A stretch of 64,000 nt of DNA from Candidatus Kaiserbacteria bacterium. Lineage in GTDB: Bacteria; Patescibacteriota; Minisyncoccia; Phycocordibacterales; Phycocordibacteraceae. Under the pieces are notes generated by a model. That model was not told the origin of the DNA, searched no databases, and worked only from the letters and a program-made list of their open reading frames with translations. The translations under genes and the position numbers were made by a program. Every line of letters starts with the position of its first letter. The stretch's first letter is position 1. Location: NCBI GenBank assembly GCA_016217905.1, contig JACRFL010000013.1, forward strand, positions 3,184 through 67,183, read 5' to 3'. This document shows positions 4,485 to 63,173 of this stretch, piece by piece.

Positions 4485-6152
4485 CTATTGCGAGCGCATG
4501 AGCCGCACGAGGCGGATGGTTTCGAAGGAGTGGCGGCCGCCAAGAGCGTGGAAAACGGGCGAGAGGCGGTCGCCGCCCTCCGCAAAAAGCGTTTCGTGAA
4601 TCTCCTCAAGCGCGCCCTCCGACACGAGGTGAGCGAAATCCGCGCGCACGAGACGGCCGAGCTCGGCGAGCTCTTCGAGGTGCTTTACAATAGTCGAAGC
4701 GACGAGTCCGCGCGCTTTCGCCGCATCCTTCAGATTTTTTGCATCTCGCACTGCCTGCAGGGTTTCCGCCAATCTTCCCGGCAACCCTGTTTGGTTTTTG
4801 CTTACACCTTTCCCCTTGCCGCTTACGTCTTCAACCGACGCCCCTCCCATCGCTTTGACAAACTTTTTCTGCAGTGCGAGTTTTTCCATCTCGGGCATGT
4901 CTGCGAATGCGTCCCGCGCCGCCTCTGAGGCGGCGCGAAAATCCCTGTCTTTCTCAAGTATTTCCGGATGCACTTCAAGCGCGCGCTCGTTGAGTCCGGT
5001 GAGGTACACCCCCGCAAGCCGCCGCACCCGGGAAAGCGCGACGTACCCCTGTCCGTATTCAAATGCCCTCGAGAGATCCATGATGGCAGCGTCCATGCTC
5101 ATCCCCTGGCTCTTGTGGACCGTCATTGCATAGGAAAGACGCAGCGGTATCTGCGAGATGCTCGCCTTCACCTTCCCCTGCTCTTCGAGTTGCCATTCCA
5201 TCGGCTCGGTGGTGATCTTCACGCCATCTTTCGTCTTTACGATCGGCATCCCGTCCGTATCCCAGCCGGTCACGACGCCGAGAGTCCCGTTGACAAACTT
5301 CCCCTGCGGCGAGTTCTTGGTGAACATTACTGCCGCTCCCTCTTTCAATTCCAACACTTCGGGCGAGAGGCATCCGCGCTTGAGCCCATCCACAAGCGAA
5401 TCCTTCCCCTTCGAGCTCATGCGGAATTTCTTCGCCGTGCCCGGGAGCTTTGCGAGCTCCTCCGCATTGATGCGATCCACGTCCGCGTTATGCGAGAAGA
5501 GCTTCGGCGCGTTCGCGGGAACCGCCGAAGGGTCGGTGTGGTGCCGCATCAACTCCTCGTAGTGCGCCTCCTCGACCTCTCCCGAGCGTATCGCGGAGAG
5601 TACGCCGAGGAATTCGGTGTCGTCTTGCCGGTATTGCTCGGTGAGATAGCAGACGATCGGGTTGAGCTCGCGCCAGAGCTTCGACGCGAACGCGAACGCG
5701 ACTTCGCGGCCTCTTGAGACCGGCGGAAGCTGGAAGAAATCTCCGACGAGAATGGCCGTGAGACCGCCGAATGGCTTGTCCGTGCGTCGCACTTCTCGAC
5801 AGACCGTATCCGCCATCTCAAATGTCGAAGAAGAGAGCATTGAGATCTCCTCGATGATGAGCATCTTTGCTTTCTGGATGCGCCGCGCGACATGCTCTTT
5901 ACTGGCGATGCGGTCGACATCCGCGCGCGAGAGCGACTCCGCGACGCCGATGCCGCTCCAGGAGTGGAGCGTCATGCCCGCGACATGCGTCGCGGCGATG
6001 CCGGTCGCGGCGGTTACCGACGGATCGATACCCGAGGCGCGCAGCCATGCGATGAACTCGTTTATCGTGTGCGTCTTCCCGCTCCCGGGGCTCCCGGTGA
6101 GGTACACGTTCGCGCCGGTCTTCAGTATCGTGAGCGCTTCAGCTTGAGTCAT
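4485..6152 (-). CDS. PIF1/RecD-family ATP-dependent DNA helicase
   Basis: Walker A GSPGSGKTHTI, PIF1/AAA_30-like core, UvrD_C_2-like C-terminal part with helix-hairpin-helix tail. Confidence 0.75.
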   Translation of the reverse strand: MTQAEALTILKTGANVYLTGSPGSGKTHTINEFIAWLRASGIDPSVTAATGIAATHVAGMTLHSWSGIGVAESLSRADVDRIASKEHVARRIQKAKMLIIEEISMLSSSTFEMADTVCREVRRTDKPFGGLTAILVGDFFQLPPVSRGREVAFAFASKLWRELNPIVCYLTEQYRQDDTEFLGVLSAIRSGEVEEAHYEELMRHHTDPSAVPANAPKLFSHNADVDRINAEELAKLPGTAKKFRMSSKGKDSLVDGLKRGCLSPEVLELKEGAAVMFTKNSPQGKFVNGTLGVVTGWDTDGMPIVKTKDGVKITTEPMEWQLEEQGKVKASISQIPLRLSYAMTVHKSQGMSMDAAIMDLSRAFEYGQGYVALSRVRRLAGVYLTGLNERALEVHPEILEKDRDFRAASEAARDAFADMPEMEKLALQKKFVKAMGGASVEDVSGKGKGVSKNQTGLPGRLAETLQAVRDAKNLKDAAKARGLVASTIVKHLEELAELGRLVRADFAHLVSEGALEEIHETLFAEGGDRLSPVFHALGGRHSFETIRLVRLMRSQ

Positions 6153-6181
6153 CCGAATACTCTACCAGATGCGCGCGGATT

Positions 6182-6721
6182 TCAACGAATGCCGGTGTCG
6201 CAGGAAATGTTTGCTGCGACGTACCCGGTCGGAGGGACGGAGACATCGACTGGCAAACAGCGCGGGAGCGCCTTACCGCCTGACGGGGCCAGCGTGTAGG
6301 AACCGGGAGGAAGCGAAAAGTTGAACGTGCCGCTTGCATCCGAATTCCCGATGATAAACGGCAATTCCGAACCGGCGCGGTACACCGTTATTGCCGCCGC
6401 GTACGGCTTGTCGGCGCACGTATGGTCGGGCGGTATACGAGCGACCGGGCAGGTCGGCCCGAGCATAACCGTCCCGCGTACGCCGGAATTGTAGGGTAAG
6501 ATACCGACTCCGCCCGTGGTGCTTGCGGCGTCTGCCGTGGGACACGGGGCGAATTCACAGTTGGGGCCGGTGCGGCCTACCGAGGAGCCGTCGGGGCAAA
6601 TTTTGGCCTCCTGTGTGCATGCCCGCGGGCCGGGCGCATTCGCCACGCGCGCACCGATTGCCCAAAGAGCAAGAAGAACCGCTATCGCGACGATGCCAAT
6701 AACGAGCGCATACTTCCTCAT
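6182..6721 (-). CDS. Secreted Cys-containing hypothetical protein
   Basis: N-terminal signal/TM segment (MRKYALVIGIVAIAVLLALWAIGA) followed by a Cys/Pro/Gly-rich mature part. No recognisable family. Confidence 0.5.
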   Translation of the reverse strand: MRKYALVIGIVAIAVLLALWAIGARVANAPGPRACTQEAKICPDGSSVGRTGPNCEFAPCPTADAASTTGGVGILPYNSGVRGTVMLGPTCPVARIPPDHTCADKPYAAAITVYRAGSELPFIIGNSDASGTFNFSLPPGSYTLAPSGGKALPRCLPVDVSVPPTGYVAANISCDTGIR

Positions 6722-7045
6722 ACCCTAAGCATAGCAGGTTATTTCTGTACCTGGTGTTCAGAACAAAATACATTGACATTGATAGCTCGACGTGTTTGAA
6801 TGTGCCTAACGTCGTTTGTTCATTTTCATTTTGCAGCAGGTTACGACGTTTCCTGCGGGCAAAGGAGAAAGCCATGGAATCAAGCACACATGCAAGACTC
6901 ATCGTACCGCAGGTATACCGACCACGTGCGGGTGAGCGAGATCTTCACCTGACGACCGTTGCAGTTACATAGGGCTGCCCTATGTATTTTCTATGTATTT
7001 CAAATTGTGCATGCTCTCATTTCCCGATTTTTGATGTCCTAGTTT

Positions 7046-7477
7046 CTACCAAGTTTCTTTTGTCCTAAGATACGTCCGCACGATTTTGACTAGAGAAACG
7101 ATGACGAGAATGATGTAGAGGATGCCGATGACAAGAGCATCGAACGCGCCCGATACTGCGCCGCTGATGCCTATGCCCCCGCCGCCGCCCGCGTTTTGTA
7201 AAAAGAGCGTCACCGCGATAATCACCGGCACCCACCACCGTGCGAATCTCCACCACGCCTGGAAGACTTCGTCTTTCAGGCGATACGTGATGAGGGAGAA
7301 AATGAGAATTGGCACTAAAGGGAACACCGAGACAGCAACAATTTCGTAAGAATCATTGCAAAAAAACCAATTTTTCTGATAACAAGACAGGATTTGGTTC
7401 AAGATAGCCGGAAGAAATAACAAAATGCTTCCAACTATTCCCAGAAACAATACATTCTTTTTTGTATTCATAATCAA
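7046..7477 (-). CDS. Small integral membrane protein (hypothetical), in low-GC island
   Basis: Four predicted TM helices and a Gly run (GGGGGIGISG). Local GC is visibly lower than surrounding genes. Confidence 0.5.
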   Translation of the reverse strand: MIMNTKKNVLFLGIVGSILLFLPAILNQILSCYQKNWFFCNDSYEIVAVSVFPLVPILIFSLITYRLKDEVFQAWWRFARWWVPVIIAVTLFLQNAGGGGGIGISGAVSGAFDALVIGILYIILVIVSLVKIVRTYLRTKETW

Positions 7478-7482
7478 AAAAA

Positions 7483-10224
7483 TTAATAATTCACCTCGAT
7501 CTTCCCCTTATTAGTCGTAAGATCGATGACAGCTAATCCCGGTAAGATTTTCTTGATCTCTCTTTCACTCTTATCTTCTTCGCTCTTTACCTCTTCCTCA
7601 ATCCTTGTCACGTTCTTCTTCGCATCGTAATGACCCTCGATCTTCAGAGTGCCCACTGTTGTTTTTTCTTCAAGCTCTTTAATGGCTTCGGTTTTGTCTG
7701 TGGACCACTCATATTTTAACATCGTCTTAGGGAGCAGTTCCGCAGATATGCCGCTGTATCGGAGCTCTTGGATTTCCAATTTGAGTTCGTGTTTTCCTTG
7801 ATTGAGTTTCTTGAAGACGATCTGCAGTGTGTTGCCGGCTTCGTCGGCAATGGTGGTGCTCGTGGCTGTTGTTAGGACAGTGGTACTGGAGAGATTATCA
7901 GTCCCGATAATCTTAAATTTTTGCGATGCCGGATCGAAAGTCAGGACTGCTTCCGGCGGTGTGATGTCGAACACAATCGTCTTTCCGATTTCCGACTTGA
8001 ACGAGAAGTCGGTCGTGCCATTCCCATCATAGTCGAGAAGAAGAGGTGAGGCGTTTTGGAGGGTGCCGTCGATAAATGTCATAGTCGCTTTGGTGCTTGT
8101 TGCAGACGGGATGGCGGAGAGGGTGCTTGAGGCGATAATGGTATTGCTCCCGTCTATTTCTTGCATATCAAGCGTGAATGAGCCTGTGGCGTAGCCGTCA
8201 AGGTTGAGGGTGAGAGGAGTGTTCTTGGGAACGGTGATCACTTGAACTTCGCCGTAGCGCTTAAAGCGGCCGCCGGGGATGGTGGAAGTGGCAGCATTAA
8301 CGACGTTGCCGAGGTTATCGGTGGCAGAGAGATTGAGAGGCGAGTGGAGAAGGAAGCGGAGACGTTTGTCGGCAACTGCGTCGGTGGCAGGTTGGGTGGT
8401 GAAAATAAATGCCAGTGGTGTTGTTGAGGTGGAATTGGTGAGAATGTTTTGAACCAGCGTGCGGAGTTCGGGGATTTCGAGGATGTCGGCGTGCTTGCGC
8501 GGGACATTTCCATTAAGCCACCATTTATTATAATCCTCCAAATTCACCCAGTACTTCCCCGCTGTCGAAGCAGTCGTTGTCCACAGTGCGCTCGGAACGA
8601 GTACCGTGCCATCTCCTTCCACAACCTCTTTGGGGCTGTAGGTGATTGCCGGAGAGACGGTGCAGGTGCGCACATCTGACATATCACTGCAATACGTTTT
8701 CCTCCCTTCCTGGTATTCAATCGTCGCAAGGGTATCCTCTCCCCACCCGGCGATTTCGTAGAGCTGCACTCCCTGCGGAGGCGCCCACGTATCAAGAGCA
8801 TTATGAACCGCTTCCGCTTTGGAAAGAAGTACCGCATTCCCTACACTCGGGTAGATGAGGTCGCTTGGTGATGATGAAGCGAGACGTCACGCGTCGGCAA
8901 TGAAGTTTTTAAGTTGCGCTCCGTCATGAATCGTACTGCCATAACGCGCGCGGAATGCGGCGAGAAAATCTGAATCATCAAACTTCACGACCGGATTATC
9001 GACATAGGTGAAATAGTTTGCCGACGGGAGAAGGTTGTACGCACTTGGCATATTTGCTGTAAGCGTGCGAGCGGTTTCGGGAGAAAGGAAAACAGAAAGC
9101 CAATCCTTGGGCAATCCCTGTTCGTATCCGTGAAGAATCGCGCTAATCGCTTGCGGCGTTCCCGCCTGCGGCACGGCAATAAAAATGATCTTGTCGATGA
9201 GTTTGGCGGCTTCCGTATCGACGAGCTTCTGGATAAGCGCTTTGGTCATGAGTCCGCCGTTACTGTGCGCGACGATGGTCACCTTGCCCGTCTTCGAGCT
9301 TTTAGCCAGTCGGCGGAGCTCTTGACTGATATAGGGCGACGAAGTCGCCCTAAGGTCGCCGGAATAGTAGATGCGGCCGTCGGGAATGGGAACGGGCACC
9401 ACCAGACTCGTGGTAACGACGTGCCCGGATCCATCGTAGGCGGTGATGGTAATTTTAATTGAGGCGGCGATACTGAGAGCGTTCGACGGACTGTCGTTAA
9501 GAATAAATGGCACACGAGTGAATGAGCCATCGACCGAGGAAGCGATCGCTGTTGTGAGCAAATTTTTGCCATAGTCAATTCCACCGCTGGAACCAAAAAT
9601 CGGATTCCCTAGTGCGTCCCATAACGTTTCCCTGATCTGATATATGGTTAAAACGCTACCGGTGCCGTCCGATAACCCGCTCAAATACATAACGTCGCCT
9701 TTTTGGGGCGGCACGACTGAGAATGAAATGTCAGTGAGCGAAATCGTCGGCGGAACGTTGTCGATTATTATCTTCGTGCTACCCGTGGCAACATTCCCCA
9801 CCGCGTCAGTGGCTATCACCGAGATGGTCTTAAGACCATCGGGAACATCCGCACCGATAGTTAGCGGCCAGAATTTAAAAAAATAATCCGGGTAATAATC
9901 GGCACCATTGATATAAAAATGATACGGATTATTTCCCCCCGATAAAGGCGTAGTGGTCGGGCTTAAGAAACCTATCTGTGAAAGATCGGCTGAGATGGTC
10001 GGTACCCCTTGCCAGCTTTGCACGTTAATTGTAATCTGCTGGTTCGCGTCACCCGCTTTAAGTGTGGTTTGATACATTCCGTATCCCAAAGTCGAAATCA
10101 TCGGCAGGTCTCCAATTCTGACTTGAGCCACGTACAGTGGTGAACTCGCCTGAACTAAGGACGGAAAAATAAAAAACACGAGCGAAAAGAAAAACGGCCA
10201 AAAAACTTGTGCACGGGTGTGCAT
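7483..10224 (-). CDS. Giant secreted alpha/beta-hydrolase (lipase/PGAP1-like) domain protein; ORFs 8887-10224 and 7483-8769 are joined in frame across a TGA at 8887-8889
   Basis: N-terminal signal peptide (MHTRAQVFWPFFFSLVFFIFPSLVQASS). Lipase-type nucleophile elbow VTIVAHSNGGLMTKAL. The frame is continuous from the TGA to the downstream ORF (…FIADA*RLASSSPSDLIYPSVGNAVLL…GVQLYEIAGW…) with no independent ATG or RBS for the second ORF. Atypically low GC. Confidence 0.55.
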
Positions 10225-10273
10225 CGTATCTAATGTAGCACCAATACTCGTGGAACGAGTATACTATGCACAT

Positions 10274-11965
10274 ATGACAAAAGACGAATTGAAAAACGCG
10301 CTTGCGGGTGTCCTGCAAGGGGAAGTATCGAATGATGCGGTGGCGCTTGAGAAAGCGAGCCGCGACACCTCCCTCTTCGAGCGAATGCCGAAGCTGGTAG
10401 TGTATCCAAAAGATGCCAAGGACGTGAGCGCGGCGGTGAGAGAGGTAGCCCGCGCCCGCTCCGCGGGCGCGGATGTATCGCTTGCGGCGCGCGCGGGCGG
10501 GACCGATATGTCGGGCGGCCCCTTGACCACTAGCATCGTGGTTTCCTTCACCAAACACATGAATCATGTACTCGAGGTTTCCTCCAACTTGGAGGCCCGG
10601 CCTCCAAGTGAAGGATATGCGGTGACGGAACCGGGGGTTTATTATAGGGATTTTGAAAAGGCGACGCTTGAAAAAGGCTTCATACTTCCCTCTTATCCCG
10701 CCAGCCGCGAGATAGCCGCCATGGGCGGCATCGTCGCGAACAATTCCGGCGGCGAGCGCACGCTCAAGTACGGCCAGACGGAGCGGTACGTCGAGGAACT
10801 GGAGGTCGTGCTCTCTGACGGTTCGCAAGTTACGTTCAAAGCGTTGACACCTGCGGAATTGGAGGAAAAAAAGAAACTTCAGACGCTTGAAGGCGCCATC
10901 TACCGCGAGATGGACGCGCTTATCACCGACAATGCCGGGCTCATCGAGGGGCGCCGGCCGCGCGTGTCGAAGAATTCCGCCGGCTACGCGCTCTGGAGCG
11001 TACTTGATGCGAAAACCGGCACCTTCAATCTCGCGAAGCTGATCTGCGGCTCCCAGGGGACGCTCGCCCTCTGGACGAAGGCGGAGCTCTCCCTCGTGAA
11101 GCCGAAAGGGCACCGCGCGATGCTCGTCGCCTTCCTCTACGACCTTTCCGACCTCCCCGAAATAGTAAAGCGCGTGCTCGCGCAGGGCCCGGAATCTTTC
11201 GAATCTTATGACGACCACACCTTCACGCTTGCGGTGAAATTCATTCCCGAGATGCTTTCGCAGATGGGCTTGTTTAAGGCCGCGCGGCTCGGCATCGACT
11301 TCATCAGCGAAGCGGCAATGGTCGCCACCGGCGGCGTGCCGAAGCTCATCTTGATGGCGGAATTCGCCGAGGACACTATCGAGGAAGCCGATCGGAAGGC
11401 GCTTCTCGCGAAGGAAGCGCTCGCCGACCTTCATCTTCATACCAAAATAGAGAAGGATGAGAAAGAGTCGGAGAAGTATTGGATCGTCCGACGCGAGAGC
11501 TTCTCGCTCCTGCGCAAGAACGTTCACGGGCTCCACACCGCGCCTTTCATCGACGATTTCGTCGTTCCGCCTTCGAGCTATCCCGACTTCCTGCCGAAAC
11601 TGAACGCGCTTCTCGAGGAATACTCATCGCACTTCATCTACACGATCGCGGGACACATCGGCAACGGCAACTTCCACATCATTCCGCTCATGGATCTCAC
11701 GAAGGAGGAGAACCGACAAGTCATCCTCGACCTTGCGCCCCGAGTCTACGAACTCGTCACCCGAGAGGGTGGCACGACGACCGGCGAGCACAACGACGGC
11801 ATCATCCGCACGCCGTACCTCAAGCTGGTTTTCGGCGCGGAAATGGTCGCGCTCTTCGAGCGGACGAAAAAAATCTTCGATCCTTTGAATATTTTCAACC
11901 CCGGGAAGAAAGTCGGCGGCACGTTTGCTGACATCGAGCGGGACATGATTAAGACGGCACCGTAA
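10274..11965 (+). CDS. FAD-linked oxidase (GlcD / D-lactate dehydrogenase-like, PCMH-type FAD-binding domain) carrying an in-frame palindromic insertion
   Basis: FAD-binding PCMH-type N-terminal domain and FAD-oxidase C-terminal domain (HGLHTAPFID, GEHNDGIIRTPYL). ATG at 10274 (MTKDELKNAL) is preferred over the tracker start 10217. Confidence 0.75.
   Translation: MTKDELKNALAGVLQGEVSNDAVALEKASRDTSLFERMPKLVVYPKDAKDVSAAVREVARARSAGADVSLAARAGGTDMSGGPLTTSIVVSFTKHMNHVLEVSSNLEARPPSEGYAVTEPGVYYRDFEKATLEKGFILPSYPASREIAAMGGIVANNSGGERTLKYGQTERYVEELEVVLSDGSQVTFKALTPAELEEKKKLQTLEGAIYREMDALITDNAGLIEGRRPRVSKNSAGYALWSVLDAKTGTFNLAKLICGSQGTLALWTKAELSLVKPKGHRAMLVAFLYDLSDLPEIVKRVLAQGPESFESYDDHTFTLAVKFIPEMLSQMGLFKAARLGIDFISEAAMVATGGVPKLILMAEFAEDTIEEADRKALLAKEALADLHLHTKIEKDEKESEKYWIVRRESFSLLRKNVHGLHTAPFIDDFVVPPSSYPDFLPKLNALLEEYSSHFIYTIAGHIGNGNFHIIPLMDLTKEENRQVILDLAPRVYELVTREGGTTTGEHNDGIIRTPYLKLVFGAEMVALFERTKKIFDPLNIFNPGKKVGGTFADIERDMIKTAP
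10584..10610. repeat. Palindromic element family A copy (CCAACTTGGAGGCCCGGCCTCCAAGTG), in frame inside the FAD-oxidase CDS
   Basis: Stem of 10 bp (ACTTGGAGGC / GCCTCCAAGT) with a 3-nt loop. Encodes SNLEARPPSE. The same sequence recurs at 38450 and 42379. Confidence 0.8.
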
Positions 11966-12721: not shown

Positions 12722-12964
12722 CTATTCCGGATCGCGTGAATAGCGAATCCAGGCGAGCCATGCAAGCAATCCCGCGAGAATCACGGAAAGCGGAATAACA
12801 ATGCATTCATTCCGGAAGATAAGCGCATAGGCGAGCGCGAGGAGGATGCCTCCGATGAGGAACAGCGCCCTCTTCAATCGGTACTCGCGAGGCGGCATAC
12901 TCTCCGCATAACCGCGCCATACGCTGATCAGCATCCATGCCACCAGGAGGCCGACGAGTACCAT
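12722..12964 (-). CDS. Small membrane protein (hypothetical)
   Basis: 80 aa, three hydrophobic helices. Confidence 0.45.
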   Translation of the reverse strand: MVLVGLLVAWMLISVWRGYAESMPPREYRLKRALFLIGGILLALAYALIFRNECIVIPLSVILAGLLAWLAWIRYSRDPE

Positions 12965-13146
12965 GAGCGGAATGAGAAGGCAATCGAACGATGCGGAGAA
13001 TTCGAAGAAACCGGGCGGCAGGCCAAGAAGTGCGGCGGCCGCGAGCGTGCCCCCCGCTTCTCCCGCGGTCTCCCCGCTTGAGGTCGCTTGCGCGCCCTTC
13101 GCGCCCCCTTCAGTCGGAGTCTGAAGCGCGACATTCCCCCCGCCTT

Positions 13147-14133
13147 CTATCGTTTTGCCGCCTCCGGAGGAAGACCCGGGAGCGGGCGTCGAACCGCCCC
13201 CACTGGACTGTTCGTCGAACCGCCTGCTTGCGCCAACAAGGGCACCGTGAACCGGCGCTCAACGCTTATCGTCGGCGGCGAGGCCCGAGAGATGACGCGG
13301 TATACGTACGTCTCTCCCGGCGTCAGACCGGTGAGTAAGAAAGAATGATTCGTTACTTTCGTCGTGTCTTCGGGAGTGGCGAACGGGTAGCCAAAATTCG
13401 GAGGTATCAGGACCAGAGCGTAGGGGCCGCCGGAGACCGGGCCATAGACGACCTGGCTGGTCGAGAGAAGATTTGTTTCCCACGTTATCGTGGCTAGTCC
13501 GGACTGGCCCACGTTCGATATGTCGAGGGCTTTTTCGTTGAATATGAAGAGACTGTTCCCAATCGATCCCCCGCCTCCTCCTCCGCCAGAACCAAGAATA
13601 GTCCCACCGCCCGGCGGCGTTCCACCTCCTCCGCCGCCTTCGCCTCCTACGACCGTGTTGCCGCAGCGGGTGGTACCCCCGTTGAACCCGACGCATACGT
13701 CGAAGCCGAGCGTCTTTCCTTGATACGAATTATCGCTTGAATCGATGAAGGAAACGTTGTACGTGAACGTCTTTGATTCTCCGTTTCCAATCGCACCGAG
13801 AGGGACTTCACCGGCGGTCGAGAGGAAATTCGCAAGAGAGTCGTCGAAGAGTGTTCCGCTGTTCCCGGTTATAGAGAGATGCAGAAGGGCGCTGAAGTTG
13901 CCGGCATCAAAAACATTAATGGCTTCGGTCAAGACGTTTTGTGTCGCGCCGGAATTATTGGTGACCGTAACGGTGCCGGCCGTCGAGTCGAGCGGAAGAA
14001 AATTCGATTTGTTGAACAGCGGATCCGGGACGAACTGGACGCCAAGCGGCGCCTGTGCCAAGGCAACGCCGGCGAAGCCCGTCAGAGAGAGGGCGACGAC
14101 CGGCAGTATCGAGATTTTAAGAAAGTTCTTCAT
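13147..14133 (-). CDS. Secreted Gly-rich protein with C-terminal FN3-like domain (true start at MKNFLK; tracker Arg-rich extension rejected)
   Basis: Signal peptide MKNFLKISILPVVALSLTGFAGVALAQA. Poly-Gly linkers GGEGGGGGGTPPGGGTILGSGGGGGGGS. C-terminal beta-sandwich-like block (ATITWETN ... LTPGETYVYRV). The start lies 4 nt after the stop of the upstream LTD gene. Confidence 0.65.
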   Translation of the reverse strand: MKNFLKISILPVVALSLTGFAGVALAQAPLGVQFVPDPLFNKSNFLPLDSTAGTVTVTNNSGATQNVLTEAINVFDAGNFSALLHLSITGNSGTLFDDSLANFLSTAGEVPLGAIGNGESKTFTYNVSFIDSSDNSYQGKTLGFDVCVGFNGGTTRCGNTVVGGEGGGGGGTPPGGGTILGSGGGGGGGSIGNSLFIFNEKALDISNVGQSGLATITWETNLLSTSQVVYGPVSGGPYALVLIPPNFGYPFATPEDTTKVTNHSFLLTGLTPGETYVYRVISRASPPTISVERRFTVPLLAQAGGSTNSPVGAVRRPLPGLPPEAAKR

Positions 14134-14137
14134 ACGT

Positions 14138-16135
14138 TTATTCGGCCGGGGTCGCCTCCGTCGGAGCGCTCTCGACAACTGCCGGAGCGCTCTCCGCCAC
14201 CACTGCCGCCGGCTCCGCTGGAGCGACTGCGGGCTCGGGGATGGCTGGCTCGACCGGCGTTTCCACGGCCGCTTCCGGCTCCGGAGAGAGAATGTCCTCT
14301 TCACGTGTGACGGCCGGCTCGACCGCCGCCGGCTGATCGGGAGCGGCCGTCTCCGCGGGAGCGGTCTCTTGAGACGTTCCCTCTGTCGAGATAGTCGTTT
14401 CAGACGCCACGATCTCGGTCTCCTCGGACGCACCTTCCTCGACCGGCAGCGGCGCCACGACGTTCTCCGGCCCGATGAAGAGGGGGAACGGATCATAGAT
14501 TCGGCCGCTCACGCTGCCAGAATTGAGCATCGGATTTTCCGGACCGATGGCGACGAGATGGATCCAGATGTAGCCGAGGAATCCGGACGGCACCGTCCAG
14601 GTAAACGCGCCGTCGTTTCCAGTAGTTTCGACTATCGTGTGCGTCGTGTCACCCAGACTTATTTTTCCGTCGTGGTTTACGTCCTTCACGTAGTAGATGC
14701 CGATGTCGAGGTCGCCGTCGGGGCCGTTGTTATTCGTCGCCGTCCACTTGATCTCGTAACTGTGCGTCCAGTACCACGTGTACGAGCCTCCCTCGTCCGG
14801 GTAGACGAGATCGATCGAAGGCGGCACGAGTTCTTTCCAATCGGAGGGCGCGTCGGTGTCGTAACCGGAAGGTACTCGAGCAAGGACGTTGCCCTCGGCG
14901 ACATTTGCCGCCCCGGGATCCCAGACGTTCGGATTGTAATTCGTCCATCCGGTGTCGGGGGTGCCCCAGTTCATCTGGTCGACGATAATCCTGTCGGGAC
15001 GTTTGAGGACAAGCATGTCGGCGTCGTTATCCAAACCGCCCCCGATTTTCGAATGTATGTTGATTTCGGTCACCTCGCTCGGCAGATACCAGTACGCGGG
15101 CAGGCCGCTCGAAACGGTCGTTGAGGTGGCGGTGGTTGACGTGGCAACGATGACCGCATATTTCTGCGCGGGAATGAGGAGTGTCGTCGGCAGGGTGTCA
15201 CACGAGGTGTTGTCGCAAATCTGCCATCCGGAAATATCCAAAGGCACGTTTGTCTGATTGTAGATCTCCACCCATTCGTTCGTACCCTCCGCACCGCGCT
15301 CCGGCGTTTTCACGTTGTAGTAGATCTTGTTGATCCGGAATCCCCACGAAGCGAGATGGTTTTTTACTTTTTCCGTATCGTTAAATCCGCCACCCTCGTA
15401 GCTCGGGTAGTCGTGCCGCGTTTGCCAGCCGTTGTAATCGATGTCGAAGTCGCAGGTGCGGTTTTGGAGATTGCTGGTCCCCGCCGTGTAGGCGAATTCC
15501 CACGGGTCGAGCGCGGTTGTCGTGGCGGTGAGGAGCCCCGTAAGAGGACCGTGATACATCTGGGTGCCCCCGCGCGTCGCGGTAACGTCAAGCCCCGAGC
15601 AGAAATCGGCATCGCCGGTAAAGTTGGTCGAGGTGGCGAAGTATTGAAACGGATTGCTCGCTTGCGGGTCGATCGCAACCGTCTTTTTCGTAACATCTCC
15701 GGGCGGCATCGACACGGCCGTACTCGTCGCCTGCCAGCCGGAAGTTGTCAGCGAGAAATCGACCGAACCCGCCCGGAAGGCATTCTCGGTCGAGCTCTCG
15801 ATATCGTTGTAGTATCCCCTTGTACTGCCGAGGCCGGTGATGCCGACGCTGTTAAGGCCGATCATGAGCGTGACGGCGAGCGCTTTAAGCGACAGCCGCG
15901 GCGTCGCCCTTATAAAAAACGGAGAGAGGACGCTCTTGCGCCTGTTCGCCCGCGCCGCGCGCGGCGCGCACGCGGCGCGCGGGCGCAGATCGAGCACATG
16001 CGCAGACGACGCGACGCGACGCGCCTTCCTCCTGGCGACCCTTCTCACCGGCACGGAAACACGCGCAGCGACAGTCGCTTTTTCTTTTTTCCGGGGAGTC
16101 TTCTTTATCGCTCCCGTTTTAATATGTACCGCCAT
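14138..16135 (-). CDS. Lamin-tail-domain (LTD) protein with SipW-cognate-like signal region and Pro/Glu/Ala-rich C-terminal tail (start uncertain: 16135 or internal MIGLNS)
   Basis: N-terminal K/R-rich segment then TM (LKALAVTLMIGLNSVGITGLG). This is followed by GYYNDIESSTENAFRAGSVDFSLT, resembling the TasA/camelysin SipW-cognate motif. LTD signature GTNEWVEIYNQTNVPLDISGWQI ... IPAQKYAVIVA. C-terminal low-complexity PEPEAAVETPVEPAIPEPAVAPAEPAAV. Confidence 0.65.
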   Translation of the reverse strand: MAVHIKTGAIKKTPRKKEKATVAARVSVPVRRVARRKARRVASSAHVLDLRPRAACAPRAARANRRKSVLSPFFIRATPRLSLKALAVTLMIGLNSVGITGLGSTRGYYNDIESSTENAFRAGSVDFSLTTSGWQATSTAVSMPPGDVTKKTVAIDPQASNPFQYFATSTNFTGDADFCSGLDVTATRGGTQMYHGPLTGLLTATTTALDPWEFAYTAGTSNLQNRTCDFDIDYNGWQTRHDYPSYEGGGFNDTEKVKNHLASWGFRINKIYYNVKTPERGAEGTNEWVEIYNQTNVPLDISGWQICDNTSCDTLPTTLLIPAQKYAVIVATSTTATSTTVSSGLPAYWYLPSEVTEINIHSKIGGGLDNDADMLVLKRPDRIIVDQMNWGTPDTGWTNYNPNVWDPGAANVAEGNVLARVPSGYDTDAPSDWKELVPPSIDLVYPDEGGSYTWYWTHSYEIKWTATNNNGPDGDLDIGIYYVKDVNHDGKISLGDTTHTIVETTGNDGAFTWTVPSGFLGYIWIHLVAIGPENPMLNSGSVSGRIYDPFPLFIGPENVVAPLPVEEGASEETEIVASETTISTEGTSQETAPAETAAPDQPAAVEPAVTREEDILSPEPEAAVETPVEPAIPEPAVAPAEPAAVVAESAPAVVESAPTEATPAE

Positions 16136-16158
16136 ATATCGGTGTGGAGGTCAGACCT

Positions 16159-16704
16159 TCATAGCGCGGCAGAATCACCGAGAGGATCTTCTCCTTTCGG
16201 CCGCTTCATCTTCCGCACCTCCCTCCGGATATTCTGCGCTTCGTCGAAGACGACGATGACAGCCGGCACGCCGATGAGAAGAACGAATCCGAACGGCTTT
16301 TTCGCGAAGTCGAGCAGGTAGCCGAGATACGGGACCGAGAAGAGCACCTTCCCGATTACCTCGCTTTGCCGCACCAGCTGCGGATCGGAATCTTCGTTCG
16401 CGTCTCCCTTCGTCGTGTAGTAGAAGACGCCGCCCCTCACCTCGTCAGAGACGATGCGATGGGTCGTCGGGACTTGCGTCTTCGTGTCCGGCCCGAACAT
16501 GATGACGTCTCCCACCGCGTACTTCCCGAGAGGCTTGACCACCGTGAGCGCGCCCGTCTTGATGGTCGGCTCCATTGAGCCCGACTGAACTATTTTCACC
16601 TCGATATTCCCCGGTATCGGCACCAGGCTCACCACGAGGAGCGCGCCAAGCGCAAGGACGGCGCCGACGAGGACGTAATATGCGGTTTTGAAGAGTGTGT
16701 GCAT
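16159..16704 (-). CDS. sipW: Signal peptidase I, SipW/archaeal-eukaryotic type (S26B)
   Basis: N-terminal TM then SGSMEPTIKTGALTVV catalytic-Ser block typical of SipW/Sec11-type peptidases. Sits between the TasA-like genes and the LTD gene. Confidence 0.8.
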   Translation of the reverse strand: MHTLFKTAYYVLVGAVLALGALLVVSLVPIPGNIEVKIVQSGSMEPTIKTGALTVVKPLGKYAVGDVIMFGPDTKTQVPTTHRIVSDEVRGGVFYYTTKGDANEDSDPQLVRQSEVIGKVLFSVPYLGYLLDFAKKPFGFVLLIGVPAVIVVFDEAQNIRREVRKMKRPKGEDPLGDSAAL

Positions 16705-16798
16705 GCGTGGCTCCGCTCGAGCCCCGGCTCTTCCGCGCCGCGAACATGCGGCGCGGAACCTGCCGATACTCGAGCGCTACTCGGTCAAGAGAGATCTC

Positions 16799-18127
16799 TT
16801 ATTCAGGAGTGTAGGGCGGACGACTCGCAATACTCGTGCACCTGAAGCCAGAGTTGCTCCTTGTTTGCTCTGCGTACGCCGTCAAAGACGCCGAGAATGA
16901 ATCCGACTGCGCAATGTTACCCATTCCAGAACCGTTGCAGCCGAATGCGCTGCCTGGAGTAGCGGTGAGCGTTCCTGCACACCATACAAGACCGATATTC
17001 TTGGTAGTGGTGGCGGTGAGGAATTGACCATTGCTGGGATCCATACTCATGATGCTGGTGAGCGATGAGAGCGGTCCGACGCCGCCGAGAGGAGTCTCGC
17101 CCACGTCATAGAGACCATTCCCGTTGGTATCTCCCCAGGTGAATACATTGAGGAAGTTGGATAACTCGCCTTTTCCAGTTGGATTACCAACCCCGTTCGC
17201 GTCACCCGCTGCTATTTCAGGAGCGAGTGGTTGTGCCGGGTTCTCTTGGTCATCTTTGTCGCCCACGATAAGGCATGAGTAGGCATCGTTGCTCGACACA
17301 TGAAGCGATATTTCATTTGTACCCCAGTCAGCCGGCTTTACATCTCCAAAGTTGAAGAATGTATCTCCTTGGCCAAGGTCCTTTTCCGTCCAAAGCCGGC
17401 AGACCTGCTGGAAGGCAGAATCTGCTTTACACTGCGCCGGATCACGATGAATATTCAGCTTGAAGAGAAGTCCAGCCGGATTCCCTGAAGAGCCTCCGCC
17501 GGCAGACATGTTACGAACAACTATGTCAAGCGTGTTCTGTCCGTTCACCATCGCTCCCATGAAGGCGGCCTCTTGAGCGCCAGTCAAGGAAACAGCCGGA
17601 TTATAGTTGAACTCGAGAGGGAGCTTATCGACAATAGTTGTTCCGTTGAGGATAATCTTGTACCCGTTGTCAGCCGCGAGAGCGAGATCTAAGTTCACGC
17701 TCACGACAGAGCCGTTCCACTGGAACTTGTTCTCGAATGTGTACTCTGCGTTATTGGTCGTATCGTTCAACGTTGTCGGATCAGTCGCCCAGATCCACTG
17801 CGCCGGAGCGAGAGCGGCTTCGCTCTGCCAGGCCGGATGTGGGCTGCTCACGTCAACAGCCGGAATGGGGAAAGGACCCTGATTTGAGGCTCCCGCGCTT
17901 GCTGCCACGACCTTTGTTGCTGTAGAGCTGTACACATTCACACTGCACGTCTCACAGTCTACGCCATTGTAGGTCTGCTTCGTGTGATCCACCTTGAGGT
18001 CAATGGAACCCGCGGTGAAGATGTTGCCCGTCGAGGTCTCGGTGTCAGCGTAGAACGCGATGGTCCCGCCGACCGCGAGAGCCGCGACGACCGCTATCGT
18101 CCCAGCGCTAAGAAGAATTTTATTCAT
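16799..18127 (-). CDS. TasA/camelysin (CalY)-family protein with SipW-cognate class signal peptide
   Basis: N-terminus MNKILLSAGTIAVVAALAVGGTIAFYADTETSTGNIFTAGSIDLKVD matches the TIGR04088-type SipW-cognate signal (GT.A.F.D.E.S.GN.FTAG..DL). Confidence 0.8.
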   Translation of the reverse strand: MNKILLSAGTIAVVAALAVGGTIAFYADTETSTGNIFTAGSIDLKVDHTKQTYNGVDCETCSVNVYSSTATKVVAASAGASNQGPFPIPAVDVSSPHPAWQSEAALAPAQWIWATDPTTLNDTTNNAEYTFENKFQWNGSVVSVNLDLALAADNGYKIILNGTTIVDKLPLEFNYNPAVSLTGAQEAAFMGAMVNGQNTLDIVVRNMSAGGGSSGNPAGLLFKLNIHRDPAQCKADSAFQQVCRLWTEKDLGQGDTFFNFGDVKPADWGTNEISLHVSSNDAYSCLIVGDKDDQENPAQPLAPEIAAGDANGVGNPTGKGELSNFLNVFTWGDTNGNGLYDVGETPLGGVGPLSSLTSIMSMDPSNGQFLTATTTKNIGLVWCAGTLTATPGSAFGCNGSGMGNIAQSDSFSASLTAYAEQTRSNSGFRCTSIASRPPYTPE

Positions 18128-18148
18128 GTTCTTTTGTTAGGCTGGTGA

Positions 18149-18973
18149 CTATGCCGACCTCGGTGAACAAAGGAATCCTGGATTGTTTCGAGATTGCACT
18201 GCACGGAAGCTCACATCAGCAGTCAAACTGTCGGTCTGCGTGATGTTGTTTACCTGGGAACCATTGCAGACGATACCTCCAGTTGAATTGGCCGGGGTTC
18301 TTGGGCTGGTCGTACCCATCCCATCCTGCTCAAGAGGAGCTGCCGAAATAGCGCCAAAACACCACGCCTTACCGATGAAGCGCTCTGAACCGCCCGGCAA
18401 TGGACCTCCTTCATCCGTCCAGATGTTCGTTTGAGAGTCAGCGAGGGCAACCGACGATGTCGCTGAGGCCGAGGCAAGCGTTCCCGAAGGGAGCGGCGTT
18501 TCGTTGTTCTCTAGAACATTGTCTCCGTCGTCAGCCCACCACATGAAGTTTACTGCCTGTGCCAATTCTCCGTTACCGGCACCATCTGATACATCACCAT
18601 CCTGCCTTTCCGGTTCCGTAATACCGTTATCATCGTTACTCGTCAGCTTTACGTCAGCACAAACGTAGGCATCGTTGTTGTTTACGTGGAGACTGATAGT
18701 GTCCTCCCCTCGATCGCCTGGCTTAAGATCAAGAAAATTAAAGAATTTCTCAATCGTCAAATCCTTTAATTCCCAAGTCGTGTCTTGATTCAGAACACCG
18801 TTATAATAACTTTCGTTATCAACCTTCAGATCAATCGCGCCGGCGGTGAAGGTGTTGCCGGTTGATGTCTCCGTGTCCGAGAAGAACGCCCCTGTCGCGC
18901 CTAAAGTGGCCGCAACGACGAACACAATCACTCCCAGACTCAAGAGAATCCTTTTGTTAAGAAGTGCTGTCAT
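18149..18973 (-). CDS. TasA/camelysin (CalY)-family protein with SipW-cognate class signal peptide (start at MTALLNKR, 18973)
   Basis: MTALLNKRILLSLGVIVFVVAATLGATGAFFSDTETSTGNTFTAGAIDLKVD. The same conserved signal block as the neighbouring paralog. The tracker start 19060 adds an Arg-rich extension that was rejected. Confidence 0.78.
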   Translation of the reverse strand: MTALLNKRILLSLGVIVFVVAATLGATGAFFSDTETSTGNTFTAGAIDLKVDNESYYNGVLNQDTTWELKDLTIEKFFNFLDLKPGDRGEDTISLHVNNNDAYVCADVKLTSNDDNGITEPERQDGDVSDGAGNGELAQAVNFMWWADDGDNVLENNETPLPSGTLASASATSSVALADSQTNIWTDEGGPLPGGSERFIGKAWCFGAISAAPLEQDGMGTTSPRTPANSTGGIVCNGSQVNNITQTDSLTADVSFRAVQSRNNPGFLCSPRSA

Positions 18974-19092
18974 AACGTATTCTTTGTTTACGCACCTTCT
19001 AAATAGGTGTCTGCAAACACGAATAGAGCGCGTTCGCACCCGCAGACGCCCCGTCTGCAACTGCCATAAGTAGATACCTCCCTAAGATCAAA

Positions 19093-19299: not shown

Positions 19300-19650
19300 A
19301 TGGATAATCAGCAGTCAGTTCAGGGGAACAAGCTTTACGTAGGCGGAATCCCCTACCGCTCGACAGAAGACGATCTCAAGAAGACCTTTAGCGAGGCCGG
19401 CACGGTCGTCTCCGCGAGCATCATCAGCGACCGCATGACGGGCCGCTCGAGGGGCTTCGGCTTCGTCGAGATGGCTACCGAGGCGGAAGCGCAGGCGGCT
19501 ATCGACCGCTGGGACGGCAAGGAGATGGACGGGCGCACGCTCTCGGTCTCTTTCGCACGCCCGCAGGGCGATCGTCCCCCGCGCCGCGAAGGCGGCTTCG
19601 GCGGCGGCGATCGCGGAGGCAACGGCGGCTATGGCCGCGGCGGATATTAA
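19300..19650 (+). CDS. Glycine-rich RNA-binding protein with RRM domain
   Basis: RNP-2 LYVGGIP and RNP-1 RGFGFVEM. C-terminal RGG/GGY-rich tail. Confidence 0.85.
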   Translation: MDNQQSVQGNKLYVGGIPYRSTEDDLKKTFSEAGTVVSASIISDRMTGRSRGFGFVEMATEAEAQAAIDRWDGKEMDGRTLSVSFARPQGDRPPRREGGFGGGDRGGNGGYGRGGY

Positions 19651-26122: not shown

Positions 26123-27814
26123 CTATGCACCGAGTGCGGCGAGCCGCGCGGAAAGCTTTGCACACTGTTTTTGCATATCACCGACCAACAAGGCGTCTTC
26201 CGATGCCTCGGCCCTGCGTAGCGCCCTTACCGCTTCCTGATACGCCTCGCGGATAACCGCTTCTTCAAGGGCGCAAAGAAGCTCGTCTCCCGCCTTCTCG
26301 TCCGGATTTTCGCCGAATGTCTGTTCTGCATAGAACAGGGACGATTCCAAAAGCGCGATAGGCGGCAGTTCTTGAGCTTCGGTAATCCGACAATACTCCG
26401 ATGTGACGCGCTTCGCAAGCGGCGTATCGGGATAAGCCCGGATAACCGCAAGAAGTTGTTCCGAACGGATTTCCGATGCCGAACGGGCCGGCGGCGTTGT
26501 TTTTCGCATGCTCGCCGTATCCGTGTCGACCGTAAAATCTTTCGGCAAGCGTTTGAGCGATTCGCGCACGGCCTCGCCGGAGATCCCGAGCGCGCGGGCG
26601 GCCGCTTGTACGAAATGTTCGCGCTCCATCGGGCTCGGTATCGCGTTGATGAGCGGAAGCACGATGCTTTCGGCCAGCCGCAAGAACCGGTGAGGGTCGC
26701 GCTCCTGCTCGGCGAGAACGCCGAGAAAGAACTCTACGACCGGTTTAGCGGCGGCGACGCGCTTGCCGAATTCCGCCGCATCTTCGCTGATAAGGTCAGC
26801 CGGATCTTTTCCGAAAGGCAGTGCGACTGCCTTGACCCGAAGTCCCTGGCGAAGGGTCAGTTCGGCCGCGCGCGCCGTCGCTTTGAGTCCGGCGGGATCG
26901 GCGTCAAGAACAAGCATCACGTTCTCGCTGTAGCGCTTCATAAGACCCGCGTGACGGCCAGTGAGGGCCGTGCCCGAGAGAGCGATCGTGTTCTGGAAGC
27001 CCGCCTGGTGCGCCAAGATAACGTCTATCTGCCCTTCAACGAGCATCGCGAAGCCGCGCGTGCGAATGGCGTCTTTCGCCATATCCATACCGAACAATAC
27101 TTCGGACTTGTGGTAGAGCTCGGTCTCGGGGCTGTTGAGATACTTCGCCTGCTCGTCCGCGGAGAGCGCGCGGCCGGTGAAGCCGACCACGCGGCCGACG
27201 GCGTCGCGTATCGGGAACATCAGCCGATTGCGGAAGCGGTCGTAGTAGGTGCCCGGCTTCCCGTCGGCTTCTTTGATGAGTCCCGCGGCAAGCAATTCCT
27301 GCGTGGAGAATCCTTCCGCAGTCATCGCCTCAAGCAGCGCGCGCCATGCCTCCGGCGCATACCCGAGCCGCCAGGCGCGGATAGTTTCCTCCGTAAGACC
27401 GCGCCGCTTCGCATACGGAGCGGCGGGACTCTCGGCGAGCTTGCCCGCATACCATTCGCTCGCGCGATTCATCAGGGCGCGCAGACGCTCTTTCTTCGAT
27501 GTATCTTCTTTCCCGGCACTACCATATATGGTAGTGATTTGGACGCCAGCCTTCTCGGCAAGAATCTTGAGCGCGCCCTTGAAATCAACTCCTTCGATCT
27601 TTTCAATGAAAGAAAAACCGTCGCCGCCCTCCCCACAACCGAAGCAGTGCCACGTCCCGCGTTCGGAACTCACGTGAAAGGACGGCGTTTTCTCTTTATG
27701 GAACGGGCAGAGGCCGCGCATGGACTTTCCCGCCCGCGTGAGCTTCACATAGGGGTTGATAATCTCGACGATGGAGAGACGGTCTTTGATTTGGGCGACC
27801 GTGTCTTTCGCCAT
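26123..27814 (-). CDS. dnaG: DNA primase
   Basis: Zinc-binding CPFHKEKTPSF ... HCFGCG, TOPRIM domain (MLVEGQIDV, VLDADPAG). Confidence 0.9.
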   Translation of the reverse strand: MAKDTVAQIKDRLSIVEIINPYVKLTRAGKSMRGLCPFHKEKTPSFHVSSERGTWHCFGCGEGGDGFSFIEKIEGVDFKGALKILAEKAGVQITTIYGSAGKEDTSKKERLRALMNRASEWYAGKLAESPAAPYAKRRGLTEETIRAWRLGYAPEAWRALLEAMTAEGFSTQELLAAGLIKEADGKPGTYYDRFRNRLMFPIRDAVGRVVGFTGRALSADEQAKYLNSPETELYHKSEVLFGMDMAKDAIRTRGFAMLVEGQIDVILAHQAGFQNTIALSGTALTGRHAGLMKRYSENVMLVLDADPAGLKATARAAELTLRQGLRVKAVALPFGKDPADLISEDAAEFGKRVAAAKPVVEFFLGVLAEQERDPHRFLRLAESIVLPLINAIPSPMEREHFVQAAARALGISGEAVRESLKRLPKDFTVDTDTASMRKTTPPARSASEIRSEQLLAVIRAYPDTPLAKRVTSEYCRITEAQELPPIALLESSLFYAEQTFGENPDEKAGDELLCALEEAVIREAYQEAVRALRRAEASEDALLVGDMQKQCAKLSARLAALGA

Positions 27815-27817
27815 AGG

Positions 27818-31537: not shown

Positions 31538-31577
31538 ATGCGTGATGTTTAAATTTTTAAATGTTTAAATATTCCAT

Positions 31578-46968: not shown

Positions 46969-46982
46969 TATATTCCACAGAT

Positions 46983-48224: not shown

Positions 48225-48239
48225 GGAAGTCTGACTTCC
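48225..48239. repeat. Palindromic family B copy (GGAAGTCTGACTTCC) immediately after the thrS stop; bidirectional terminator-like
   Basis: 7-bp arms, opposite orientation (central T). Confidence 0.6.
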
Positions 48240-48243
48240 CTAC

Positions 48244-63172: not shown

Positions 63173-63173
63173 G

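Follow-up and report, generated by a model that had tools for sequence, protein, structure and literature searches.

In the TasA fibre of Bacillus subtilis, the mature subunit begins at residue 28, and residues 28-38 form a donor strand that inserts into the next subunit. The accessory protein TapA carries a donor-strand-like N-terminus on a different, complete fold, and nucleates the TasA fibre. One of the paralogues encoded by the calY operon of Bacillus cereus may act as nucleator (Röske et al. 2023). Archaeal bundling pili (ABP; AbpA/AbpB) and the other filaments of the TasA superfamily, including AbpX, CanA cannulae and 0406 threads, are likewise complemented by donor strands; AbpX genes often adjoin signal peptidase I genes, and calcium drives cannula assembly. 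AbpB is a larger protein of several beta domains that has been proposed to donate the first strand and to act as an adhesin (Wang et al. 2022). Homologues in Pfam family PF12389 are already on record from the Patescibacteria, in one sentence on an AnnoTree survey (Wang et al. 2022), and databases name some of them 'TasA family protein', 'SipW-like signal peptide' or 'SipW-dependent-type signal peptide-containing protein'. Here we describe five co-directional genes, A to E, in 64 kb of a contig (JACRFL010000013.1) from Candidatus Kaiserbacteria, a member of the Parcubacteria group of Patescibacteria; this whole stretch is called the window below. On balance, we consider this locus to be probably a Patescibacteria-type elaboration of the TasA/SipW extracellular fibre system.

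The likeness to B. subtilis tapA-sipW-tasA lies in the organisation of the operon as well as in its proteins. In both, an S26B signal peptidase is encoded among its substrates (here predicted ones), the major subunit is a PF12389 protein with a TIGR04088 signal peptide, and a conserved segment, here one that appears equivalent to TasA 28-38, follows straight after the cleavage site. In both, an accessory protein (TapA, and here D) shares only the N-terminal signal and donor strand with the subunits and has another fold behind them, and its gene adjoins that of the peptidase, closely or with overlap. In contrast to the Bacillus operon, the cassette runs in the order subunits, peptidase and then accessory proteins, it has two to four subunit paralogues, one of them with a lectin-like insert, its peptidase C falls below the SipW equivalog cut-off, and its fifth, membrane-anchored protein (the E family) has no Bacillus counterpart. 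D is 2.5 times larger than TapA and has a lamin tail domain (LTD), an immunoglobulin-like (Ig-like) domain and an acidic tail. The TapA model TIGR04087 does not match D, and matches only 1 of 50 members of the D family (E 0.056); as such, D resembles TapA in its logic, with a donor motif on a different fold, and is best regarded as an analogue, not a member of the family.

Two TasA-family paralogues together with sipW are also found in B. cereus sipW-calY1-calY2, but an LTD protein, a lectin insert and a membrane-anchored protein of the D/E type are all absent from that operon. In the archaeal systems, AbpA is a weak match to the structural model of A (Foldseek E 0.016, rank 16), no dedicated peptidase is encoded in the ABP operon, and neither an LTD nor a lectin insert is described for the archaeal superfamily. 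The role proposed for AbpB is nonetheless the one we propose for D, and the conserved acidic loops of A and B recall the calcium-driven cannulae. Chaperone-usher and sortase pili with tip adhesins offer a functional analogy, in that a shaft subunit is combined with a minor binding subunit and a terminal anchor and, in chaperone-usher pili, donor strands are exchanged; there is no homology, however, and the cassette has no usher, chaperone, sortase or LPxTG motif. Patescibacteria are not known to have an outer membrane.

The original prediction for this DNA, made from its letters and open reading frames (ORFs), regarded an LTD-bearing SipW substrate in such an operon as novel. This was overstated, given at least 143 D clusters and at least 3843 A clusters (lower bounds at 90% identity; the corresponding number for E is at least 203), the existing database names and the survey of Wang et al. 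(2022). What does stand is that an LTD protein in a TasA/SipW operon was not found described: the literature searched held no description of the five-gene cassette, of such an LTD protein, of the lectin insert or of the domain common to D and E. The TasA superfamily of Bacillus biofilms and archaeal pili and cannulae is thereby extended by three architectures not found described in the searched literature, namely a subunit with a lectin insert, a TapA-like LTD protein and a membrane-anchored paralogue of that LTD protein. Host attachment by Patescibacteria (the candidate phyla radiation, CPR) outside the Saccharibacteria is poorly understood, and its discussion has centred on type IV pili. In an ultra-small, groundwater-type bacterium the cassette is a conserved candidate attachment organelle that is experimentally tractable. 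Its five genes are small and suited to heterologous expression, and for each component something specific can be predicted: where cleavage falls, which strand is donated, which sugar the lectin recognises and what holds the fibre in the membrane.

TasA-family proteins and a SipW-type signal peptidase

Both A and B belong to PF12389 (Peptidase_M73), with 29.8 and 23.6 bits against a gathering score of 22.5, and both have a SipW-cognate signal by TIGR04088 (21.1 and 22.3 against a cut-off of 19), in agreement with the original description of two TasA/camelysin-like paralogues. The PF12389 match of B spans residues 10-49 only, and the C-terminal part of B is 35% identical to A. By BLASTP, B 3-56 is 63% identical to A 8-60 and B 246-431 is 35% identical to A 67-270, while profiles of the two families align with 100% probability in hhalign (E 2.7e-62), leaving a clean gap over B 57-245. 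On these alignments B is best described as A with an inserted domain. Most A homologues, at about 450 aa, have a further domain at the C-terminus, PF19403 (SpaA_2, prealbumin-like); the A of the window is short and consists of the core only, as do a minority of relatives (270-302 aa).

Conservation in the A family is highest in the segment that follows the predicted cleavage site. A level of 90% or more is reached at about 62% of positions 29-49 and at about 36% of the others, and F30, F31, D33, E35, S37, N40, A44, G45 and L49 are invariant in the family alignment. This segment appears to be equivalent, position for position, to the TasA donor strand 28-38. In the AlphaFold2 (AF2) model of A (pLDDT, the per-residue confidence, 80.6), a helix at 3-26 is followed by a low-confidence unstructured stretch at 28-43 and a beta-sandwich at 49-260. 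A Foldseek search of solved structures with this model returned the TasA fibre 8AUR at rank 4 (E 1.1e-3), with other jelly-rolls scoring equally; the best matches are generic jelly-roll and carbohydrate-binding domains at scores similar to that of TasA. The similarity is modest, and the fold is compatible with TasA, not decisive for it. Also invariant in the A family are four cysteines and the acidic loop WWADDGDNVLE, which in A lies in the region 145-158 (WWADDGDNVLENNE) and has the counterpart WGDTNGNGLYDVGE in B, where eight cysteines are conserved. These loops seem to resemble an EF-hand-type calcium site, and together with the cysteines they suggest calcium binding and disulfides, as would be expected for extracellular assembly.

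With Pfam, the insert of B gave only sub-threshold matches to carbohydrate-binding module (CBM), glycoside hydrolase family 2 galactose-binding and PA14 domains, and its identity was resolved only by searching the PDB with a family profile. This profile (A4), built from 10 inserts of related loci in which the motifs W..WIW, aaDNxY..LNG and NPaGL are invariant, matched the Pleurotus ostreatus lectin in each of its two tandem domains (6T0Q/6KBJ/6T1D; E 1.6-2.1e-10) and the rhamnosidase 3W5M of Streptomyces avermitilis in its N-terminal region (E 1e-7). The lectin structure 6T1D is of a calcium-dependent galactose-binding lectin, and the rhamnosidase, SaRha78A, has a calcium-dependent rhamnose-binding module, CBM67, inside which residues 124-232 of 3W5M presumably lie. 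Because the insert is homologous to these lectin- and CBM67-bearing structures, B reads as a TasA-type subunit that would display a lectin-like domain, with sugar binding as a putative function.

Gene C encodes a signal peptidase of the archaeal and endoplasmic reticulum (ER) type, as had been predicted from its SipW-like features, and not a generic LepB: it scores 99.8 on TIGR02228 (cut-off 51.85), and on the LepB-type model TIGR02227 it stays below threshold (22 against 47). Among solved structures, human SEC11A/C come closest (E 2.7e-8), and both catalytic boxes align with theirs: SGSMEP/THRIV of C stands against SGSMEP/IVHRV of SEC11A, the Ser-His rather than the Ser-Lys arrangement. The SipW-type motif occurs in exactly three ORFs of the window, those of A, B and D, and the linkage of the genes suggests that the neighbouring TasA-like proteins are putative substrates of C.

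The lamin-tail-domain protein and its anchored paralogue

D joins an LTD to an N-terminus of the subunit type. The LTD noticed in this 665-aa protein was borne out by PF00932 (42.6 against a gathering score of 34.3), which matched all 50 family members as well. The donor-strand-like motif is likewise kept by all 50 members inspected, always behind a Thr (-3) and a small residue, Ala, Gly or Ser (-1). In hhalign, the A family aligns with the D family at 97% probability (E 1.1e-10) over 74 columns that take in signal peptide, motif and first strand, and the B family does so at 97.5% (E 8.8e-12) over signal peptide and motif only. TIGR04088 matches 24 of the 50 family members and PF12389 16 of them; D itself has no TIGR04088 match, so that the SipW-cognate N-terminus first read in D holds at the level of the profile and the family, but not on that model for D itself. 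Once signal peptide and motif are removed, the D core aligns with the A core at a probability of 6.5%; the two cores are unrelated at profile level, and D is not a third TasA paralogue.

The AF2 model of D has pLDDT >90 in three beta domains, and the motif YYNDIESSTENAFRAGSVDF falls in a low-confidence segment. Foldseek with the whole model returned only generic multi-Ig arrays (macroglobulins, complement, chaperone-usher pilins; TM 0.1-0.2), to which we attach no meaning, PDB sequence and profile searches with D and its family returned neither TasA nor other informative relatives, and Pfam gave only sub-threshold matches for the C-terminal domain, in which 6 of 50 family members match a Kre9_KNH-like Ig domain. 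Neither a hydrophobic anchor nor LPxTG was found in the tail of D. Long basic N-terminal extensions of similar composition recur in many D homologues, including distant ones and ones from AT-rich genomes; the 78-residue N-terminal tail of D, a cytoplasmic stretch ahead of the signal-anchor helix, is therefore probably real. A model of the LTD-bearing extracellular nuclease ExeM matched 4 D-family members weakly, which is only a hint that DNA might be a candidate ligand of the LTD.

The fifth protein had been taken for a secreted protein with a domain like fibronectin type III (FN3). The domain is there, with a match to PF16656 (FN3-like / purple acid phosphatase N-terminal; 32.7 against 30) and a sub-threshold one to fn3 PF00041 (16.6 against 25), but the 328-aa product is not a complete secreted protein: it is the frameshift-truncated N-terminal part of a membrane-anchored family. 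E homologues are 370-514 aa long and end in hydrophobic helices followed by basic residues (R/K). Searching the window by tblastn with the C-termini of homologues recovers the C-terminal part of E in another frame (E down to 1e-47); over 95 aa this part is 59% identical to the end of P0326, an intact homologue (E 1e-36). The left boundary of the locus consequently moves from 13147 to 12722. An ATG-started piece of this part had been listed as a separate 80-aa ORF (12722-12964). With one G added to a run of five, the reconstructed 470-aa protein has three C-terminal hydrophobic segments and can be aligned over its whole length with the intact homologue, also of 470 aa, in L087, the closest relative locus. 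The Logan assembly L001 (run SRR12113407), in which 5.4 kb of the locus are reproduced exactly, has the identical G5, and as such the frameshift is reproducible, though the two assemblies may share reads. A fixed mutation may explain it, as may slippage or phase variation, or an error common to the two assemblies.

The N-terminal domain of E aligns with the core domain of D at 97.1% probability in hhalign (E 7.4e-11, 133 columns, signal peptides included), and independent alignments with the signal peptides removed give 96.2% (E 2.6e-9); these profiles point to the E N-domain as a paralogue of the D core. The SipW/donor-strand motif is missing from E, and TIGR04088 matches 0 of 43 E-family members. 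Two further relationships were considered and rejected. The cores of D and E are not divergent TasA cores at the sequence level, where E against the A core gives a probability of 0.1% and D the value stated above, and the C-terminal domain of D is not related to the FN3 domain of E (0.1%).

Conservation of the cassette

A D-family profile was used to retrieve 80 loci from species-representative genomes, and the five proteins were mapped onto them by phmmer; synteny was counted over those 39 loci that were non-redundant and encoded a D homologue complete with N-domain and LTD. The peptidase lies immediately upstream of D in 38/39, one to four TasA-like genes lie upstream in 35/39, E lies downstream in 35/39, and all three hold in 31/39, with most exceptions at contig ends. 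The same order is seen in the gene calls of four independent contigs, at D identities down to 39%. Conservation of the neighbourhood in relatives, on which the original prediction had staked its reading, was thus observed, and the cassette is well conserved and widespread among relatives. Among 185,579 species representatives there are at least 204 tblastn matches to D, LTD-only ones included. The organism names among the A, D and E protein matches listed are all those of Patescibacteria lineages or just 'bacterium', although a few of the genome loci are labelled otherwise.

One variant locus (L049; DATKVU010000026.1, from a metagenome-assembled genome labelled Clostridia) has a single 520-aa ORF at 5373-6935 in which a SipW-type peptidase and an LTD protein appear to be joined. 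Its LTD part consists of a second transmembrane (TM) segment, the motif YFSDVMIIPDNTFSMA, a Pro/Thr linker and the LTD, and has no D/E-type domain; two short TasA-like genes (191-192 aa) lie upstream and an E homologue with a single C-terminal TM segment lies downstream. This variant suggests that the donor strand, the LTD and an anchored E may be the conserved essentials of the cassette. On another contig (JGI 3300029286, 201 kb; loci L002/L003), the cassette is preceded, at a distance of about 2-3 kb, by opposite-strand genes for the curli secretion proteins CsgG, CsgF and CsgE (1202-2924). Their presence there would be unexpected if the contig came from a monoderm Patescibacterium.

Proposed assembly and alternative explanations

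We propose that A, B and D lose their SipW-cognate signal peptides to the membrane peptidase C, and that each would then present an N-terminal segment corresponding to the donor strand of TasA. A, which consists of the core only, and B, with its lectin-like insert, may then polymerise outside the cell by donor-strand exchange, the N-terminal strand of each subunit completing the beta-sandwich of the next, and the conserved acidic EF-hand-like loop may make assembly dependent on calcium. D shares only signal peptide and donor strand with the subunits, and as such could donate a strand and nucleate or cap the fibre in the manner of TapA or AbpB, while displaying its LTD, Ig-like domain and long acidic tail. 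Intact E would be held in the membrane by its C-terminal helices and is a candidate for the anchor at the cell end of the fibre, where it might pair with D or take up the terminal donor strand. With E frameshifted in this genome, the anchor could be missing, or could depend on slippage at the G-run. If the cell is episymbiotic or ultra-small, the lectin domains of the fibre could attach it to glycans on a host or surface.

The polarity of such a fibre might take either of two forms. D may sit at the base, held by E through their shared domain; TapA is thought to sit at the cell-proximal end of its fibre. Alternatively D may be an adhesin at the distal tip, as for AbpB, with E accepting the last free donor strand. 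If these roles of D and E are true, the system would amount to a donor-strand fibre in a monoderm, with defined components at its ends. A still more specific picture is tentative, and we think it doubtful in its entirety: a membrane-anchored donor-strand-exchange pilus of the Parcubacteria group (Paceibacteria), distinct from type IV pili and processed by an ER-type peptidase, with calcium-dependent lectins along the shaft and the LTD at one end, that would tether ultra-small cells to host glycans or, via the LTD, to extracellular DNA, and would be switched between cell-bound and shed states by slippage at the G-run of E.

A number of our observations weigh against the locus being a TasA/SipW-type fibre system, or against parts of that proposal. 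PDB sequence and profile searches with A and the A family did not retrieve TasA. C misses the cut-off of NF046067, the Bacillus SipW equivalog (106.3 against 190), and so is of the SipW type but is not the SipW orthologue. The two polarity models are opposite, and both fit the data. The core domain shared by D and E could already be complete as a fold and unable to accept a strand, which makes the anchor role of E speculative, and the frameshift in E means that the system may be partly defective in this organism. A scan for promoters and terminators gave counts near the shuffled expectation and nothing upstream of A on the minus strand, and neither kind of signal backs the limits of the operon; such a scan is uninformative for a CPR genome.

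Much of the same evidence can be read without a fibre. A, B, D and E could be non-polymerising surface or secreted adhesins or binding proteins that share export by an archaeal-type peptidase, with the N-terminal motif as a recognition or retention signal. The polymerisation of A and B is, after all, something we infer, the fold of A matches generic jelly-roll and carbohydrate-binding domains about as well as TasA, B has a lectin-like domain, and an LTD with Ig domains, as in D, is typical of adhesins. We nevertheless consider this explanation unlikely, though deserving of real weight. The conserved segment belongs to the mature protein, past the predicted cleavage, and is some 20 residues long, which is unusual for a mere cleavage signal, and it matches the TasA donor strand position for position; A and B pass the PF12389 gathering score, and an assembly system accounts better than unrelated adhesins for the TapA-like logic of D and for the strict synteny of the five genes. 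An assembly of another kind, a two-dimensional S-layer-like envelope lattice in which E would be the membrane tether and the acidic tail of D a wall-spanning spacer, seems to us improbable. It would suit the very large A family of the Patescibacteria, the membrane anchor of E and the conserved acidic loops, which recall calcium-dependent S-layer assembly, but the known structures found for the PF12389/TasA superfamily are filaments or tubes made by donor-strand complementation, and an essential coat would be more widespread than this cassette, which is patchy among the species representatives.

Two further explanations stem from names given to these families, and both were rejected. PF12389 is called Peptidase_M73 (camelysin), from which A and B might be taken for surface metalloproteases of the M73 type and the operon for a proteolytic or nutrient-acquisition module. 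Neither HExxH nor any other evident metal-protease motif was found in A, B or D, and the characterised structures of the family are structural fibres, so that this is very improbable. To a reading of the products as ribosomally synthesised peptide precursors (RiPP) we give next to no credence. It follows the automatic JGI label on homologues, 'predicted ribosomally synthesized peptide with SipW-like signal peptide', which is the old name of TIGR04088; the products are large proteins of 274-665 aa with confidently predicted folded domains, and no modification enzymes appear among the gene calls of the cassette in relatives' loci. Against these alternatives, a fibre of the TasA/SipW type is the reading that we favour.

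Locus layout and genomic surroundings

The whole locus occupies 12722-18973 on the minus strand (ORF analysis; Table 1), and successive genes from A to E are separated by gaps of only 21, 94, 23 and 4 nt. The five ORFs and their coordinates, lengths and motifs had been correctly given in the original prediction, except that its two signal-peptide strings were swapped: GGTIAFYADTETSTGNIFTAGSIDLKVD belongs to B and ATGAFFSDTETSTGNTFTAGAIDLKVD to A. The TTG at 19060 is the start of the longest ORF only, and not the ATG start of gene A. The source was also guessed rightly, as an ultra-small or episymbiotic bacterium, A, D and E each being 100% identical to NCBI proteins of a Candidatus Kaiserbacteria metagenome-assembled genome, encoded on a contig of 76.6 kb. 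The lower GC content ascribed to the locus applies to A (0.512) and B (0.543), which lie below the window mean of 0.581, but not to C, D and E (0.59-0.61).

Table 1. Positions in the window of the five genes and of their predicted domains and motifs
Feature	Position	Strand	Length, content and basis
Gene A	18973-18149	-	274 aa from ATG; signal-peptide helix 3-26; predicted SipW cleavage after ..LGATGA; donor-strand-like motif FFSDTETSTGNTFTAGAIDL; beta-sandwich core 49-260
Gene B	18127-16799	-	442 aa
B insert, lectin-like beta domain	17393-17959	-	residues ~57-245, ~190 aa; family profile against PDB
Gene C, S26B (ER/archaeal, SipW-type) signal peptidase I	16704-16159	-	181 aa; hydrophobic N- and C-terminal segments; SGSMEP Ser box; THRIV His box
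Gene D	16135-14138	-	665 aa
D residues 1-78, disordered K/R-rich N-tail	15902-16135	-	24 K/R, 2 D/E
D residues 79-100, TM helix	within D	-	AF2 domain map
D residues 108-127, donor-strand-like/SipW-cognate motif YYNDIESSTENAFRAGSVDF	15755-15814	-	after ..GSTRG (Thr -3, small residue -1)
D residues 128-263, D/E-type beta domain	15347-15754	-	hhalign, AF2
D residues 266-436, lamin tail domain	14828-15340	-	PF00932
D residues 440-547, Ig-like beta-sandwich	14495-14818	-	high-confidence AF2 strands
D residues 553-665, disordered acidic Pro/Glu/Ala/Val-rich tail	14141-14479	-	pLDDT <50; composition across family
Gene E as read in the window	14133-13147	-	328 aa; AxA signal peptide ..GVALA-QA; D/E-type N-domain ~28-160; Gly-rich linker; FN3-like ~205-296
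G5 run, E frame lost	13197-13201	-	one extra G gives a 470-aa protein
E C-terminal part, shifted frame	12722-13258	-	Gly/Ser/Thr linker and 3 hydrophobic helices (~384-465 of the reconstruction)

Immediately upstream of the operon, and divergent from it, lies a gene for a 116-aa RNA-binding protein of the RNA recognition motif type with a Gly/Arg-rich tail (19300-19650, plus strand). On the other side, beyond the operon at 10217-11965, is a flavin adenine dinucleotide-binding oxidase, which in the close relative L087 directly follows E. A tRNA scan and Rfam at gathering score found nothing in the whole window. Further patches of low GC content (0.45-0.50 against the window mean of 0.58) are present at 7001-8000, 47001-48000 and 62001-64000, and very large ORFs of 1239, 1058, 1060 and 939 aa lie within 26123-34754 and 43786-51063.

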